Shown in pieces: positions 548 through 5,739 of a stretch of 5,739 nucleotides of DNA (the stretch's first letter is position 1; each line of letters opens with the position of its first letter). The stretch is from contig JBBIMK010000049.1 in assembly GCA_037444445.1 (NCBI GenBank), positions 1 to 5,739 on the forward strand. The letters are read 5' to 3'. The translations under genes and the position numbers were made by a program. The DNA comes from a bacterium (GTDB lineage: Bacteria > UBP7 > UBA6624 > JBBIMK01). The notes under the pieces are model-generated. The model ran no database searches, had not been told where the DNA came from, and saw only the letters and a program-made list of their open reading frames with translations.

Positions 548-1078
548 ATGGGAAGGCGGATATGCCGGGATAGTGGCTTGGCTATTGTTTTGGTGTGGGG
601 TGCTTTTCTAACGGCGTGCGGGGGGAAGGGGGCGAAGGTGCCTCTGGAGTCTATCTCGGTGGGCGGTATCTCCGTGGGTATGGACAGGGAATCTGCCGTG
701 AACCTGACGGGATGTAAATGGGAAACATACGCGGGGACGGCATTAAGAGGAGCAACCGCCTATGTTTGCCCGGAGGGGAGCCTGAAGTTAGACCTTCAGC
801 CTATGGGGCTGTCTGCCGAGGCAACTGCCCGCACGAAAGTCTATGCCCGGGTAAAATCCACAAAGGTTTCTGGCTTTGCCCTCTCTATAGAGTCGCCTGC
901 GATGGTGTCGTTAGAGGCTTTGACCTCTGCCCTCGTGAATTACTACGAAAAGGTTATCGGAAAGCCTCCCGAGCGGAGGGGAAATACTTATAACTGGAGG
1001 GTGGGGAAGAAGACCTTTTTCATCCAGCTGGACGAAGAAAACTCCCGGGTTCTCATTGCCACCTTTCCCCAGGTCTGA
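548..1078 (+). CDS. predicted lipoprotein, function unknown
   Basis: N-terminus is MGRRICRDSGLAIVLVWGAFLTACGGKG. It has a basic n-region, a hydrophobic h-region and a lipobox L-T-A-C with Cys24. I recognise no family in the mature part. It starts 28 nt after the DinB-family stop, so it is probably co-transcribed. The SD is weak (AAGGG about 12 nt upstream). Confidence 0.6.
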   Translation: MGRRICRDSGLAIVLVWGAFLTACGGKGAKVPLESISVGGISVGMDRESAVNLTGCKWETYAGTALRGATAYVCPEGSLKLDLQPMGLSAEATARTKVYARVKSTKVSGFALSIESPAMVSLEALTSALVNYYEKVIGKPPERRGNTYNWRVGKKTFFIQLDEENSRVLIATFPQV

Positions 1079-2299: not shown

Positions 2300-2364
2300 T
2301 TATCCCATCCACCTTCTACAATACTACACCACCACCTCTACCTCTTTCACTTCTAACATACAAT
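2296..2364 (-). other. 69-nt tract with no G on the + strand (C-free in mRNA sense) covering the MFS gene leader
   Basis: Hand scan finds no G between + strand positions 2296 and 2364. In mRNA sense the tract is A/G/U only, with repeated GAGGU and GGUGG elements, for example GGUAGAGGUGGUGG (reverse complement of 2329-2342). Confidence 0.5.
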
Positions 2365-2444
2365 GAAAGACATTTATATCCGTTATATTTTCATAAAATT
2401 GTTAAGTTTGTTCATTGAAGTTTGCATTTTTCACGAAAATATGT

Positions 2445-2473
2445 CATCATTATCAATGGTGATGGACTTTTTT
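2445..2473. terminator. weak hairpin plus T6, possible bidirectional terminator after the kinase-helicase gene
   Basis: CATCATTA-tcaa-TGGTGATG at 2445-2464 gives 8 bp on the + strand if two G-U pairs are allowed. Only 5 perfect pairs form on the - strand. GAC then TTTTTT (2468-2473) follows on the + strand. On the - strand the hairpin is followed by ACAUAUUUUC. It lies 28 nt beyond the stop at 2493-2495. The stem is AT-rich and of low stability. Confidence 0.25.
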
Positions 2474-2492
2474 GAGATGTGGAAGACTGATT

Positions 2493-5213
2493 TTATCGGG
2501 CGAGGAGTTCTTTCAGGAAGCGGGAGGGCTTGCCTTCCCGATAGCCCCGCTGTCGGGCGGAGTAGGTGAGATAGAGTCTCTGGGAAGCCCGGGTGATGCC
2601 CACATAACATAGACGACGCTCTTCTTCAATCTCTTCTTCTTTCGCCGTCCATAATGGGATTTCACCCTCCACCATTCCGGTGAGGAATACGACGGGAAAT
2701 TCCAGACCTTTCACGGAATGAAGGGTGCAGAGGTTGACTCCTTCCTCCTCTTCAAATAATCCAGAATCTTTCAGAACCTGAATATAGTGGAGGAAGCCCG
2801 CCAGTGTTTTCTCTTTTGATTTTCTCTCAAAATCCATAGCGGTATTCAGTAGTTCCTGAAGGTTTTCCATCATCGTTAGAAAGGAGCCGCGAGACTGAAC
2901 CCCTGGTTGAAGTTGCAGTTCCTGAAGGATGAGGGAGAGGGTTTTATAGGGTGTGAGTTGGTGTTTACTGGCGTTGAGTTCCCGGATGAGGTTCAGAGGG
3001 CGAGATAGAGGATGAGGTGGAGGGAGGATTTCCTCCTCCTTCCTGACGACTTTCGGCTGTTGCTCCACCACTTTCCACAGGGCTTCCCACAGGGATAAAC
3101 CTTTGCGGAGAAGGGGAAACACCTGGCGCCACACCTGTTTCAAGGGCTCAGGGTTGGGGAATGCGAGCATGCGTTTGAGATGTTCATCATCCTGGGGGTT
3201 CTCAATGGCATAGAGGTAACTCAACAGCGCCAGGACTTCATCCCTCTGGTAGAAGGAAGGGGAGAAGAGAATGGAATAGGGGATGCGCAGGGAGGAGAAG
3301 GTATCTTCAAACAGGCGGGAGCGTGCGTTGACCCGATAGAGGATGGCAAGGTCGCTGAAGTTATAGCCATCTTCTTTTAATCGTTTGACTTCCTGAGCCA
3401 CGAAAAAGGCTTCCTCTTCCGGGGTAGAGAAGCCCTGGAGGAAGATATTTTCGCCCGCGGTGGATACCGGGGTTTTCAGGGTGAAAATCAATTTGTCCTG
3501 CCGGAGGTTATTGTGGGCAATCAAGTTATGAGCGGCTTGCAGGATTTCCCTGGACAGGCGGAAGGAGCGGGTGAGAGAATAGGTGGTGGCGCCGGGGAAA
3601 TGCTCCTGAAAGTTCTGGAGATATGTCGGCGAGGCGCCCCGCCATTCATAGATGGACTGGTCGTCATCGCCGGTGGCGTATAGAATGGCATTCTTCCCCA
3701 GCAAAAGTTTCAGGATGAGAATCTGGGCGGCATTCAAATCCTGGAATTCATCTACGAGGAAGGCTTTAAAGTGGTTCTGGTAAAACAGTTGCAGGTCAGT
3801 ATATTTCTGGAGGAGGTGGACGGTGTAATAGAGGACATCGTCAAAAGTGAGACAGTTGCGATGGCGGAGGTATTCATCCGTGGCTTCCCAGAAGTGGTGA
3901 AGGAATTTGCCCCAGGCGCCCGGGTGTTCCTTCATCAGGTCGGCGGGCTTCAGTAGCCTGGCTTTCGCCTTCTGGATGGTTCGCCAGACCGTTTCCGGGC
4001 GGGGGGTGGATTTGAACCTCTCCAGCACTGCTTTTGCCACATCCAGTTCATCCTCCGGCAGGACGATGTGGATGTCAGGATGGAAGCCCATACGCCCCAG
4101 GTCTCGCTTGAGTATCCGCAGGCAGAGATGATGAAAGTTGCCCAGCCACAGGTTCTCCGTCGTGGAGCCCAGGAGTTTTTCCAGCCGCTTCTCTATGTCT
4201 TTCCAGGCTTTCGTTGTGAAAGTAACGATGAAGATTTCTGTGGGTTTGAACCCTTGATTCTGGAGCAAATCCACCGATTTTGCGATGAGGGCGTAGGTCT
4301 TCCCGGTGCCGGGACCTCCGACAACGAGGAGCCTGCGCTCTTCAGAAGTGACTGCCAGCCTTTGCTCCTCCGTGAGGGTCTGTAAAAAGGCGGATTCCGA
4401 ATTCAGGGCTGTTTTCACCGTTAAAACGGGGATGGGAATAGTAGTAGGATGAAGGGCTTTCAGAAACGCCTCACAGGAAGGGAAGCGAAAAGCAGGGTCC
4501 GGGGAGAGGGCTTTTTTCAGTGCCTCCCGAAGGTAAGAGGGCAATTGAGAGAGAGAGTCTAAGGGAATGGGGGTCTCCGCTCTTCTCTTCATTTCACTCA
4601 GGGAACTGGCAAACAGAGGGTTGATGCCCGTTAACAGTTCATACAGGATTAAAGCGGTGGAATACTGGTCGGAGGCAGGGGAATGCTCGCCCCGCCAGGC
4701 TTCCGGCGCCATATAGGAGGGCGTGCCTGCAATGCTTACAGAGATATGCTGAGCCAAAAGTTTCGCCAGCCCGAAATCGGTTAATTTTATCCCACCCGCC
4801 GGTGTGACCAGCACATTCTCCGGCTTCACATCACGGTGGATAATCCCGCTGGAATGGGCATAGTGGAGAGCCTGGAGGATGGGGATGACCAGTTGAAGCG
4901 CCCGCCCGACAGCCATAGGGCTTTCCTTCTGCATCACCTTCCTCAGAGACTGCCCCTCTATGAACTCTGTGACAATCACCAGATGCTTCTCTATCCGCTC
5001 CACCGTGTAGAAACGAAGGATATGAGGATGGTCCAGGGAGGCAATAATTCTCGCTTCCTCGAGGTAAGGGGACACATCCTCTGCCTCATCCCTGCTGACC
5101 TTCAGGGCAAAATCCTTCTTCAGCAGGGTATCCTCCACTCGGTAGACATCGCCGAACCTTCCCCCGCCCACCCACTTCTTCACCTGATACTTTCCAAACT
5201 TCTGCGGAATCAT
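2493..5213 (-). CDS. fusion protein: N-terminal Hanks-type Ser/Thr protein kinase plus C-terminal UvrD/PcrA/Rep-like SF1A helicase
   Basis: Single uninterrupted 906-codon ORF. Kinase motifs are GGGRFG, FALKV (K38), HRDVKPEN, DFG and GTPSYMAPE. Helicase motifs are LTEEQRLAV, GGPGTGKT, VTFTTKA, DEFQD, GDDDQSIYEWRGA, LTRSFR, LHSVKGLEF, RRLCYVGITRA and C-terminal PSRFL. ATG 5213 is the first start after an in-frame TAG (5229-5231). Its own SD is poor, with GAAAGG abutting the ATG. Confidence 0.9.
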   Translation of the reverse strand: MIPQKFGKYQVKKWVGGGRFGDVYRVEDTLLKKDFALKVSRDEAEDVSPYLEEARIIASLDHPHILRFYTVERIEKHLVIVTEFIEGQSLRKVMQKESPMAVGRALQLVIPILQALHYAHSSGIIHRDVKPENVLVTPAGGIKLTDFGLAKLLAQHISVSIAGTPSYMAPEAWRGEHSPASDQYSTALILYELLTGINPLFASSLSEMKRRAETPIPLDSLSQLPSYLREALKKALSPDPAFRFPSCEAFLKALHPTTIPIPVLTVKTALNSESAFLQTLTEEQRLAVTSEERRLLVVGGPGTGKTYALIAKSVDLLQNQGFKPTEIFIVTFTTKAWKDIEKRLEKLLGSTTENLWLGNFHHLCLRILKRDLGRMGFHPDIHIVLPEDELDVAKAVLERFKSTPRPETVWRTIQKAKARLLKPADLMKEHPGAWGKFLHHFWEATDEYLRHRNCLTFDDVLYYTVHLLQKYTDLQLFYQNHFKAFLVDEFQDLNAAQILILKLLLGKNAILYATGDDDQSIYEWRGASPTYLQNFQEHFPGATTYSLTRSFRLSREILQAAHNLIAHNNLRQDKLIFTLKTPVSTAGENIFLQGFSTPEEEAFFVAQEVKRLKEDGYNFSDLAILYRVNARSRLFEDTFSSLRIPYSILFSPSFYQRDEVLALLSYLYAIENPQDDEHLKRMLAFPNPEPLKQVWRQVFPLLRKGLSLWEALWKVVEQQPKVVRKEEEILPPPHPLSRPLNLIRELNASKHQLTPYKTLSLILQELQLQPGVQSRGSFLTMMENLQELLNTAMDFERKSKEKTLAGFLHYIQVLKDSGLFEEEEGVNLCTLHSVKGLEFPVVFLTGMVEGEIPLWTAKEEEIEEERRLCYVGITRASQRLYLTYSARQRGYREGKPSRFLKELLAR
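2514..4376 (-). other. UvrD/PcrA-like helicase module (about residues 280-900)
   Basis: Walker A GGPGTGKT is at residues 299-306 (nt 4296-4319). Motif II DEFQD is at 488-492 (nt 3738-3752). Motif III is at 515-527 and motif VI VGITRA at 871-876 (nt 2586-2603). The spacing between motifs Ia-II and IV-V fits 1B and 2B insert domains as in UvrD. No nuclease domain is appended. Confidence 0.85.
4452..5189 (-). other. Hanks-type Ser/Thr kinase module (about residues 9-254)
   Basis: G-loop is at nt 5151-5168, K38 at 5100-5102, HRD at 4830-4838, DFG at 4770-4778 and APE at 4701-4709. Subdomain IX Asp (SDQYS) and subdomain XI Arg (AFRF) are present. No catalytic residue is substituted, so it does not look like a pseudokinase. 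Confidence 0.85.
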
Positions 5214-5228
5214 CCTTTCATCTACTCG

Positions 5229-5272
5229 CTATGCCAGAGGGAAATCCGAAATACGAAGCACGAAATCCTCCT
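5229..5272 (-). promoter_or_regulatory. strong SD (AGGAGGA) plus a 10-codon GTG uORF in the kinase-helicase leader
   Basis: On the - strand, AGGAGGA (5272-5266) is followed by a 5-nt spacer between GGAGG and the GTG (5261-5259). The uORF reads GTG CTT CGT ATT TCG GAT TTC CCT CTG GCA TAG (MLRISDFPLA), with the stop at 5231-5229. It is in the same frame as the kinase ATG, which lies 15 nt further on. Confidence 0.3.
5241..5268 (-). repeat. four tandem heptamers
   Basis: On the + strand: GAAATCC (5241-5247), GAAATAC (5248-5254), GAAGCAC (5255-5261) and GAAATCC (5262-5268). In mRNA sense these read GGAUUUC GUGCUUC GUAUUUC GGAUUUC. The repeat is certain; its function is unknown. Confidence 0.6.
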
Positions 5273-5277
5273 GTTCA

Positions 5278-5487
5278 TCATCCGTAATTCATTATACCGC
5301 AATAAAAGCCGACACATAAACCCCGTAGCCCGAGACCGCAACCGACACTTCCGCATCCTCCTGCCTTGCCCCATAACTTGCCATAATTCTTCTTGCTGGT
5401 ATGGGGCCTTTGGGGGAGGGAAATTTTTGCCGTGGTGCGATACCCGAGGATGTTTACCGAGAATCTCGGAGGGGTATCACCCTCCAT
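5278..5487 (-). CDS. hypothetical small basic Gly/Cys-rich protein (69 aa), coding status uncertain
   Basis: ATG 5487 is preceded by AAGGA (5501-5497) with a 9-nt spacer. The C-terminal half is GGCGSVGCGLGLRGLCVGFYCG, with Cys45/50 and Cys58/63 forming two CX4CG motifs. Net charge is about +7. The underlying DNA repeats are offset by multiples of 3. Arguments against: I recognise no family, a perfect -10 box lies inside it, and it overlaps other open frames. Confidence 0.3.
   Translation of the reverse strand: MEGDTPPRFSVNILGYRTTAKISLPQRPHTSKKNYGKLWGKAGGCGSVGCGLGLRGLCVGFYCGIMNYG
5291..5296 (-). promoter_or_regulatory. candidate -10 box (TATAAT on the - strand) for the kinase-helicase gene
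   Basis: The + strand ATTATA at 5291-5296 equals TATAAT on the - strand, about 78 nt upstream of ATG 5213. The best -35 is only TTTATG at an 18-nt spacing (3 of 6), and there is no TGn extension. Confidence 0.3.
5296..5348. repeat. bipartite direct repeat ACCGCAA(N0/6)CCGACAC, two copies
   Basis: Copy 1 is ACCGCAA 5296-5302, then TAAAAG, then CCGACAC 5309-5315. Copy 2 is ACCGCAA 5335-5341 directly followed by CCGACAC 5342-5348. Copy 1 abuts the -10 box. Confidence 0.5.
5368..5407. repeat. 8-bp inverted repeat GCCCCATA / TATGGGGC with a 24-nt loop
   Basis: The arms are 5368-5375 and 5400-5407 and are perfect complements. The loop contains CTTGC twice and CCATAA twice. A weak + strand promoter (TTGCCA 5378-5383, 16 nt, TATGGG 5400-5405) overlaps it. 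Confidence 0.4.
5415..5485. promoter_or_regulatory. cluster of nested and mutually exclusive helices (switch-like)
   Basis: GGAGGG occurs at 5415-5420 and 5468-5473, and both complement the single CCCTCC at 5480-5485. GATACCC (5439-5445) pairs with GGGTATC (5472-5478). CCGAG at 5444-5448 and at 5457-5461 both complement CTCGG at 5465-5469. Confidence 0.35.
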
Positions 5488-5520
5488 CTTTGAAAATCCT
5501 TACGCTCACTCCATTTATGG

Positions 5521-5739
5521 ATGTATCCAGCGCGCAGGGCTAACAATCAGACCACCGCATGTCTTGCAGTTAACGATGATGACTGGAACTCTGGGGGGGA
5601 AAGGGAACTCTCTGAAGCAAAGTATTCGGATTTTCTATCATCTTCTGACGATTTTCTTGAACTTCATAATTTCATTGCAAAATGTCGTTTGGGTTTGCTT
5701 CTTGAAGCAGACAAAGGGCATCGCAAACCCCGCCATTTC
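5521..5739 (+). CDS. 5' part of a hypothetical protein gene running off the window edge (frame not settled)
   Basis: This ORF is absent from the supplied track, presumably because it has no in-window stop. The frame starting at ATG 5521 is open for 73 codons: MYPARRANNQTTACLAVNDDDWNSGGERELSEAKYSDFLSSSDDFLELHNFIAKCRLGLLLEADKGHRKPRHF. Its composition looks like a soluble protein. My hand counts of G+C by codon position are about 56/41/38 percent, which is gene-like. There is no SD. An alternative frame is open from 5387 (GTG 5432 or ATG 5450) to 5739 and encodes a hydrophobic product lacking Asp. Confidence 0.35.
   Translation, partial: MYPARRANNQTTACLAVNDDDWNSGGERELSEAKYSDFLSSSDDFLELHNFIAKCRLGLLLEADKGHRKPRHF
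5585..5611. repeat. direct repeat GGAACTCT, two copies, flanking a G7 homopolymer
   Basis: GGAACTCT is at 5585-5592, GGGGGGG at 5593-5599, AAAG at 5600-5603 and GGAACTCT at 5604-5611. The repeat period is 19 nt. Confidence 0.5.
5691..5730. repeat. nested inverted repeats
   Basis: GGGTTTGC (5691-5698) complements GCAAACCC (5723-5730). The 14-bp palindrome TGCTTC-TT-GAAGCA (5696-5709) overlaps the left arm. Confidence 0.4.

Follow-up and report, generated by a model that had tools for sequence, protein, structure and literature searches.

A Ser/Thr kinase–UvrD-type helicase fusion normally paired with ARPP-1: a candidate bacterial module for DNA-damage or replication-stress signalling

What is the function of a protein in which a complete Ser/Thr kinase is joined to a complete DNA helicase, and does such a protein act by itself? 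The question is raised by an open reading frame (ORF) on the minus strand of contig JBBIMK010000049.1 (assembly GCA_037444445.1; GTDB lineage UBP7, UBA6624, JBBIMK01), a stretch of 5,739 nucleotides analysed as a whole and referred to below as the window. An earlier reading made from the DNA letters alone (the sequence-only reading) had described the product as an intact Hanks-type kinase fused to an intact UvrD-like helicase, and had proposed a single-polypeptide device with an output in defence or DNA-damage signalling. Our analysis found that the fusion is real, and the coupling of a DNA motor to a phosphorylation output was taken as the natural reading of its architecture. The idea of a single-polypeptide device does not describe the usual case: the fusion is normally one half of a two-gene module, with a gene of the ARPP-1 family (PF20208) paired in 26 of the 27 lineages that could be assessed. 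As to the output, signalling is preferred and defence is retained as a weaker rival; a signalling module ranks above a mobile anti-phage system as the most likely explanation.

The ORF list gives one uninterrupted frame of 906 aa with an ATG start and a stop codon at 2493–2495, as the sequence-only reading had described. The N-terminus of the product, MIPQKFGKY, is in line with the family consensus MxxxKLGKY. The three Pfam domains predicted for it were found together on one chain: Pkinase PF00069 at residues 9–245 (E 6.6e-48; 163.8 bits against a cut-off of 31.7; profile positions 1–253 of 263), UvrD-helicase PF00580 at residues 280–540 (E 4.2e-61, 207 bits) and UvrD_C PF13361 at residues 545–885 (E 4.1e-53, 181 bits). 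Direct reading of the translation also placed each motif listed earlier at the residues claimed for it. In the kinase these are GGGRFG (16–21), K38, E53, HRDVKPEN (126–133), DFG (146–148), GTPSYMAPE (163–171), D182 of subdomain IX and R243 of subdomain XI; in the helicase they are GGPGTGKT with K305, DEFQD (488–492), GDDDQ (515–519), LTRSFR (547–552), H832/G836, RRLCYVGITRA (866–876) and PSRFL (896–900). No transmembrane or sensor region was found in the fusion protein.

In an AlphaFold2 model built on the family alignment, both halves were confidently predicted, with a mean predicted local distance difference test (pLDDT) score of 87.5. The low-confidence stretches comprised the activation loop (residues 150–160, pLDDT <50, as is typical for a mobile activation loop), the linker (residues 258–269, pLDDT <50) and a loop of domain 2B (residues 725–730). 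With a predicted template modelling score (pTM) of 0.59 and a disordered linker, the relative orientation of kinase and helicase is undefined, so that no docking is claimed. The modelling suggested by the sequence-only reading therefore returned two folded halves and no reliable interface between them.

The first alternative to be weighed is that the fusion is an artefact, a chimeric assembly or a hidden frameshift that joins separate kinase and helicase genes. The a-priori rarity of the architecture, and nothing else, speaks for it. Among 5.8 billion protein clusters searched, at least 120 (90% identity level) combine Pkinase with UvrD domains of Pfam; they derive from NCBI, JGI, ENA and Logan assemblies, and almost all are full length (836–924 aa). 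These clusters are independent, draw on four data sources, with a complete 2.85 Mb genome among them, and share the same junction; metagenome DNA also gave 40 full-length fusions de novo. The closest homologue (P0001) is 81% identical in protein sequence, followed by P0002 and P0003 at 48% and by others at 32–44%. Against the 81% relative, the window ORF shows 77.6% nucleotide identity over its whole length with no frame break, and the ratio of nonsynonymous to synonymous substitution rates (dN/dS) is 0.13 for the kinase, 0.08–0.11 for the helicase and 0.11 overall. Both halves are under purifying selection in the window's lineage. The full-length alignment and the low dN/dS exclude mis-assembly or pseudogenisation of either half, and the worry that the junction might conceal either a mis-assembly or a frameshift was not borne out; we regard an artefact as next to impossible.

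The extent of the family was also examined with HMMER over 1.84 billion representatives at 50% identity. About 33 of these match residues 1–904 with 446–917 bits, and below them rank plain PcrA/UvrD proteins, which match residues ~276–903 only and reach at most 363 bits. The gap between 446 and 363 bits indicates a small, sharply bounded fusion family. Taking the taxonomy from the names given by the sequence sources, its members come from candidate division WOR-3, Candidatus Aminicenantia, Thermosulfidibacter, Thermosulfidibacteraceae, Candidatus Hydrothermia, TA06, Planctomycetes and unclassified bins. The products go under generic labels ("UvrD-helicase domain-containing protein", "protein kinase domain-containing protein", "DNA helicase-2/PcrA"). 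Complete or high-quality genomes with the fusion include CP070664.1, GCA_054402895.1 and GCA_049719805.1. The family is small, distinct and bacterial, and apparently vertically inherited. Large hits of the HMMER search that match in several stretches (P0183, P0224, P0232, P0254 and P0291) were rejected as independent fusions, since their Pfam domains are those of tandem multi-kinase proteins without UvrD; P0183 (1598 aa), P0224 (1957 aa) and the remaining three carry three or four tandem Hanks kinases together with EAD9/TCAD9, AAA_16, TPR or FHA domains, architectures that are unusual in themselves and have no relation to the fusion family. Furthermore, a scan of genome contigs seeded on the generic motifs HRDxKPEN and GTPxYMAPE recovered ordinary Hanks kinases only, and a search for the exact window protein returned no record.

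The partner gene was first apparent in gene tables. In five annotated lineages, namely P0003 (an unclassified bacterium), P0082 (the complete 2.85 Mb WOR-3 genome), P0012, P0028 (Thermosulfidibacter) and P0044, an ARPP-1 gene encoding 284–335 aa lies directly upstream of the fusion on the same strand. The partner was assigned to PF20208 with E 1e-60 to 1e-70, the two genes are separated by anything from a 4-nt overlap (L091) to 90 nt, and the other neighbours vary among these lineages. A metagenome survey was seeded on the family G-loop GGGRFGDV[YF] and yielded 68 loci, whose ORFs were scored with hidden Markov models of both fusion halves and of five ARPP-1 proteins. The family kinase, either fused or cut by the contig end, was carried by 58 of the 68 loci, which form 31 clusters at 80% identity, and 27 of these clusters have enough flanking sequence to be assessed. 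Among the 27, ARPP-1 lies less than 200 nt upstream on the same strand in 24, within 1.1 kb in one and 8 nt downstream in one, and it is missing in one. The inverted order was observed at locus L149, where ARPP-1 follows the fusion at 3874–4752.

At the loci with larger gaps (L106, L118 and L145), a Y1/RAYT-type transposase with flanking repeats is inserted between ARPP-1 and the fusion. The intervening genes were considered as a third component of the system and rejected on this ground. In these WOR-3-like loci the Y1/IS200-like transposases lie at L106 3097–4026, L118 9380–9922 and L145 2278–2850 and are flanked by short tandem repeats; this interval appears to have been hit by transposases repeatedly. 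The homologous loci of full length share no third conserved gene. When 34 loci were compared in pairs, the identity of ARPP-1 correlated with that of the fusion (r = 0.97, slope 0.91), indicating that the two genes have been inherited together; the common species phylogeny contributes to this value, which accordingly does not prove a physical interaction. Ancestrally, the family had both genes in one operon, with ARPP-1 first and the fusion second.

ARPP-1 itself looks like an enzyme, a prediction suggested by its invariant residues E68, Q75, R77, C97, E99, R102, W103, R121, Q142, D231, Y250 and H315 (numbering of P0121); the Ser/Thr residues S160 and T162 are also conserved. The AlphaFold model of P0121 is of high quality (pLDDT 91.2, pTM 0.90). 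A Foldseek comparison of this model with 350,542 PDB chains gave no significant match (best E 0.14), so that the fold appears to be structurally uncharacterised, and no PADLOC match was obtained for the protein. ARPP was described in ARG-centred predicted conflict systems and also in two-gene pairs with HIRAN, WYL or deacetylase proteins, and it was proposed to act on sugar moieties, possibly with Cys-mediated cross-linking (PMC9503650). A kinase-UvrD partner is not mentioned in that work (Iyer, Burroughs, Anantharaman and Aravind 2022), in which the word "UvrD" does not occur.

Conservation in both halves of the fusion was assessed in an alignment of 62 family sequences. In the kinase, G16, G18, K38, E53, H126, D128, K130, N133, D146-F147-G148, T164, E171, D182 and R243 are invariant. 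The activation segment follows the consensus DFGLAxFxxGxxSxSxAGTPxYMAPE, in which a conserved SxS pair (S158 and S160) and T164 are candidate autophosphorylation sites. The best relatives in the PDB are PknB kinase domains (126 bits, TM-score to the target ~0.8), and the kinase half classifies as an ordinary PknB-like kinase of the RD class. The linker contains no conserved column and shows indels in the family alignment, and its proportion of nonsynonymous differences (pN) is 0.43 compared with about 0.1 in the domains.

In the helicase half, Q284, G299, G302, G304, K305, D488, Q491, D492, D516, Q519, R552, R627, G836, T874 and R875 are invariant or near-invariant. The conserved catalytic positions in both halves, together with purifying selection, support the earlier expectation that both enzymes look competent. 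The features of the UvrD-like branch of superfamily 1A (SF1A) are all present, including both profiles, the Q motif, Walker A, DEFQD and motifs III to VI. Sequence matches in the PDB are led by PcrA (1pjr, 331–333 bits), followed by UvrD (281), Rep (250) and Mycobacterium tuberculosis UvrD1 (249), and the best folds found by Foldseek are likewise PcrA/UvrD/Rep (E 1e-45). No PDB chain matched both halves in either the sequence or the Foldseek searches.

These resemblances raise a further alternative, in which the fusion is a lineage-specific replacement of the housekeeping PcrA/UvrD and its kinase mainly regulates its own helicase by autophosphorylation in cis. The similarity of the helicase half to PcrA, then to UvrD and Rep, is consistent with this, as are the core chromosomal positions of the genes, the apparently vertical inheritance and the JGI label "DNA helicase-2/ATP-dependent DNA helicase PcrA" carried by members. 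The equivalog models of NCBIfam, however, are far from satisfied: PcrA TIGR01073 scores 461 bits against a cut-off of 911, with model positions 1–631 of 725 covered, UvrD TIGR01075 scores 380 against 1144 and Rep TIGR01074 scores 356 against 951. Through residue alignment, it was also observed that the GIG site of domain 2B, KRGIGAST in PcrA and TRGIGDRT in UvrD, reads PNPEPLKQ in the window. The GIG motif is absent from all 62 family members, whose 2B segment around this site is either deleted or hypervariable. The C-terminal extension after PSRF is also missing, the alignment stopping at PcrA residue 643 of 724 and the fusion ending one residue later. In PcrA and UvrD the GIG motif contacts duplex DNA, and the C-terminal extension mediates binding to RNA polymerase; the alignment indicates that the motor core has lost these two DNA- or partner-targeting elements. 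With scores below the equivalog cut-offs and both elements missing, the helicase half is best classified as PcrA/UvrD-type and no orthologue of PcrA, UvrD or Rep. The clear score gap to plain PcrA/UvrD and the near-obligate ARPP-1 partner, for which a replacement leaves no explanation, make this alternative improbable. It is misleading to annotate family members as "PcrA" or "DNA helicase II".

The chromosomal surroundings bear on whether the module is mobile. The sequence-only reading had considered the locus to fit accessory DNA, an idea that misfits most homologues. The fusion has rpmA, recJ, dnaN and dnaA as neighbours in P0100 (Hydrothermia), and guaB (IMPDH), dapF (DAP epimerase), BioY and speE (spermidine synthase) in P0016 (WOR-3). 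The other annotated neighbourhoods contain rpsT, glyQS and thiF; metK and ahcY; hemN-like and alaS-like genes; an ABC transporter, a miaB-like gene and ftsK; and rpsL, rpsG, fusA, efp, ftsZ and ftsA. Apart from L001 and L164, the annotated contexts are housekeeping and contain no defence genes. In WOR-3, the flanking genes for a TonB-dependent receptor and a VTT-domain protein are kept even between lineages whose fusions share less than 60% identity. No relative was found with the G-loop seed in 2.9 million viral contigs, and none of 50,697 phages and 72,556 plasmids held a record covering at least 80% of the fusion protein. Accessory surroundings do apply to the closest relatives of the window, L001 and L164, with their methyltransferase cassettes. 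The possibility raised earlier, that homologues might sit uniformly in core repair operons, was half right in that the contexts are core genes; they are no repair operons.

The strongest rival to signalling is a two-gene immune module, directed against phages or other mobile elements and composed of ARPP-1 and the kinase-helicase. Its motor would sense replication intermediates or foreign DNA, such as sugar-modified phage DNA on which ARPP-1 acts, and its kinase would trigger abortive infection or growth arrest by mass phosphorylation, by analogy with Stk2 and PD-T4-6-type kinases. Domain-level PADLOC matches of the fusion point in this direction (GajB up to 297 bits, PD-T4-6 216, mad6 213), as does the definition of ARPP in predicted conflict systems (PMC9503650). 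The rarity and patchy distribution of the family and its hypervariable 2B region fit as well, and L001 and L164 carry a methyltransferase and an MjaV-like nuclease upstream of the fusion, with a methyltransferase cassette downstream at the site of the window's AT-rich spacer. The PADLOC matches nevertheless appear to be generic, lying below the PcrA score or being no better than housekeeping kinase models, and no conserved nuclease or other effector gene was found nearby. The remaining annotated contexts are free of defence genes, the WOR-3 synteny is conserved, and the co-tracking identities of ARPP-1 and the fusion give no sign of shuffling. The lack of copies on phages, plasmids and viral contigs, the absence of ARPP-1 from PADLOC-DB and the strong purifying selection, with no rapid evolution seen in the catalytic domains, also count against defence, which we consider unlikely while giving it more credence than replacement.

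We therefore favour, tentatively, a bifunctional motor-kinase that acts with ARPP-1 in chromosomal DNA-damage or replication-stress signalling. The helicase half would serve as the sensor and localisation domain of the kinase, loading on single-stranded DNA at gaps, stalled forks or processed ends and translocating 3' to 5'. Several molecules crowding on the DNA could then phosphorylate one another on the conserved activation-loop serines, and the active kinase might phosphorylate ARPP-1, DNA-maintenance proteins, cell-cycle or division proteins, or several of these. ARPP-1 may supply or process a DNA-sugar lesion or modification that the motor meets. A bolder version, which we consider doubtful, is that the pair forms a previously unrecognised DNA-lesion checkpoint of the ATR or DNA-PK kind, evolved independently in deep-branching bacteria. 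In this version, deoxyribose that is damaged or sugar-modified would be recognised, or bound covalently, by ARPP-1 on single-stranded DNA; the SF1A motor without GIG would travel to the lesion, and DNA-templated clustering would activate the Hanks kinase towards replication, repair or division proteins. Signalling, defence and replacement together do not take up the whole of the probability.

Several points weigh against the signalling role. Beyond the intactness of both enzymes, every step of the mechanism is one that we infer. The neighbours are housekeeping genes and no DNA-repair operons, so that the context gives no positive pointer to repair, and the first description of ARPP came from predicted conflict systems (PMC9503650). 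Two methyltransferase-containing, restriction-modification-like cassettes lie less than 5 kb from the gene in L001 and L164. Two-gene defence systems can also occupy stable positions in chromosomes, and the patchy distribution in a few phyla, together with the lineages that lack an adjacent ARPP-1, would suit an accessory function. Finally, the metagenome survey was seeded on one G-loop variant and covers part of the family only.

The window's own copy is one of those without the partner. The 526 nt upstream of the fusion (5214–5739) contain stop codons in all three minus-strand frames, and tblastn with four ARPP-1 proteins gave no match in the window or in L001 and no remnant upstream. The window fusion is separated from ARPP-1 and is an orphan copy; the other lineages without an adjacent ARPP-1 are L001, L164, P0100 (Hydrothermia) and P0016 (WOR-3). 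The co-evolution slope predicts that the ARPP-1 of the window's lineage would be ~43% identical to P0121, and P0125, a stand-alone ARPP-1, is 43% identical to it. P0125 lies on a contig from JGI sample 3300010938, which also holds L164 (in this sample the fusion is on contig Ga0137716_10007372 and ARPP-1 on Ga0137716_10015326), and among 117 long loci the tetranucleotides of this contig are nearest to L001 and L164 (r = 0.92; 0.91 against the window). This circumstantial evidence suggests that the pair has been unlinked in the window's lineage rather than that ARPP-1 has been lost. On the contig of P0125 (L165, 1540–6353), ARPP-1 is followed by an ECF (extracytoplasmic function) sigma factor, a zf-HC2 anti-sigma factor and a VIT-VWA protein. 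The features of the window are collected in Table 1.

Table 1. Positions of the fusion gene, its parts and the flanking features in the window.
Feature	Position	Strand	Evidence
Complete fusion ORF	2493–5213	-	ORF list, three Pfam domains, homologous clusters, overall dN/dS 0.11 against the 81% relative
Hanks-type PknB-like Ser/Thr kinase, RD class (predicted), residues 9–254	4452–5189	-	Pfam, PDB matches, 62-sequence alignment
Codon of catalytic K38	5100–5102	-	
Codon of catalytic D128	4830–4832	-	
Activation segment DFG...APE, residues 146–171, with candidate phospho-sites S158, S160 and T164	4701–4778	-	
Flexible linker, residues 255–279	4377–4451	-	Low pLDDT, unconserved columns, pN
SF1A PcrA/UvrD-like helicase core (predicted), residues 280–906, ending at PSRFL	2496–4376	-	Pfam, PcrA model, alignment
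Codon of Walker A K305	4299–4301	-	
Site equivalent to the 2B GIG motif, here PNPEPLKQ, within residues 684–691	3141–3164	-	Motif absent
AT-rich spacer between the fusion and the downstream MFS gene	2300–2492	.	GC 0.321 against 0.523 for the window
Perfect TATAAT, candidate -10 element, 83 nt before the ATG	5291–5296	-	Only notable signal in non-coding 5214–5640

By Pfam, the neighbours of the fusion in the window are an MFS transporter, a DinB protein and a lipoprotein-like ORF. The order fusion, MFS transporter, small protein and DinB is common to the window, L001 and L164, while the upstream sides of the window and L001 are unrelated. The lipoprotein-like ORF (548–1078, plus strand; 176 aa) has an N-terminus of the form …LTACGG and no Pfam family; a 182-aa protein in L164 occupies the same interval between the MFS and DinB genes, a likeness of position and size. 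The AT-rich spacer that had been pointed out beside the fusion was confirmed. Exactly at its site, L001 and L164 carry an extra 2.5 kb cassette (L164 13223–15123, L001 12965–15123) encoding an N6/N4 DNA methyltransferase, a 223-aa protein that matches nothing in Pfam or PADLOC and a 151-aa protein consisting of an HRDC domain only. This HRDC domain resembles the C-terminus of the PADLOC DpdF models, and it is curious to find such a domain by itself beside a UvrD-type helicase. In L164, some 2.4 kb upstream of the fusion (5292–7585, minus strand), a 535-aa N6_N4_Mtase/UPF0020 protein and a PF27324 MjaV-like protein were found, which by their domains resemble a second restriction-modification pair. 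The methyltransferase cassettes around L001 and L164 indicate that the immediate surroundings are variable in the window's lineage.

The upstream region of the fusion, which the sequence-only reading had called unusually dense in signals, did not show this property. A consensus scan found no full sigma-70-like promoter on the fusion strand, an Rfam scan of the whole window gave no match, and a repeat search of the region found weak repeats only, leaving the single TATAAT of Table 1. A three-codon upstream ORF (ATG AAA GGA TGA; 5210–5221, minus strand) overlaps the fusion start codon, and its GGA is the sole purine-rich stretch directly before the fusion ATG. At the end of the window, an ORF on the plus strand (5521–5739, …DDFLELHNFIAKCRLGLLLEADKGHRKP…) continues beyond the last position; alternatively, 5640–5739 on the minus strand may hold the last 34 codons of a gene that ends near 5640. 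Neither of these window-end ORFs resembles ARPP-1 or the upstream genes of L001.

As the sequence-only reading had supposed, no characterised kinase-UvrD fusion was found in the searched literature or the PDB. The searched literature, PADLOC and the PDB gave no description of the fusion, of the GIG-less and tail-less SF1A clade or of the pairing with ARPP-1. The individual domains are textbook material, and members of the family are already public under generic names. Bacterial Hanks kinases are usually activated by extracellular or membrane-linked sensor domains. To our knowledge, the reading of chromosome state by such kinases is known from isolated cases only, such as YabT and RqkA. In the fusion, the sensor would be an entire ATP-driven DNA motor with active sites conserved across several poorly studied phyla. 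If the motor gates the kinase, the family would offer a compact model for DNA-templated kinase activation in bacteria and a functional handle on ARPP-1, a predicted enzyme. If the module is a defence system instead, it would represent a new sensor-effector arrangement of helicase, kinase and ARPP.

Compared with known systems, the fusion contains the full 1A-1B-2A-2B core of PcrA, UvrD and Rep with all ATPase and translocation motifs; it differs from them in its N-terminal kinase, its hypervariable 2B domain without GIG and its missing C-terminal extension. With GajB of Gabija (PMC10681800) it shares the UvrD-like SF1 fold, and PADLOC models of GajB match its helicase half. GajB, however, has no kinase, and no GajA partner (ATPase-TOPRIM/OLD) accompanies the fusion in the window or in homologous loci. 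The fusion helicase is also closer to PcrA (461 bits) than to any GajB model (at most 297 bits), and no GajB structure is among the 60 best PDB sequence matches listed. Stk2, PD-T4-6, MAD6 and PglW have a Hanks kinase domain in common with the fusion, but none of them is fused to a UvrD helicase, and the PADLOC scores for PD-T4-6 and mad6 resemble that of PknB_PASTA (188 bits); the NCBIfam models give 193 bits against a cut-off of 460 for MAD6 of MADS and 77 against 990 for PglW of BREX. The comparison with GajB and Stk2 drawn by the sequence-only reading thus comes down to shared domains.

The published ARPP two-gene systems (PMC9503650) can be compared as well. The partner described here is a bona fide PF20208 protein with the conserved Cys and Gln named there, and it stands beside a DNA-associated protein, as in the HIRAN and WYL pairings. 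In contrast to those systems, in which kinase-UvrD does not figure among the pairings, the module has the fusion as its second gene, and the window's fusion has no adjacent ARPP-1. RqkA of Deinococcus radiodurans is a DNA-damage-responsive Ser/Thr kinase with a role in the DNA-damage response, which phosphorylates FtsZ and FtsA and has cell-division and repair proteins as substrates (PMC6052341). Like the fusion, it has its Hanks kinase at the N-terminus, followed by a linker and then a non-kinase domain at the C-terminus; that domain is a WD40 beta-propeller and not a helicase, and there is no ARPP-1 partner. YabT of Bacillus subtilis is a sensor-less, membrane-anchored Hanks kinase whose activation depends on DNA, bound through a short basic juxtamembrane motif, and which has RecA as a substrate (PMC3708118, PMC6333020). 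The fusion shares with it a Hanks kinase without an extracellular sensor, and differs in its complete ATP-driven motor as DNA-binding element, the lack of a transmembrane segment and the ARPP-1 partner. Among characterised kinases, YabT comes closest to the logic proposed here, with no orthology implied, and the fusion would be a counterpart of such DNA-activated kinases in logic rather than in ancestry.

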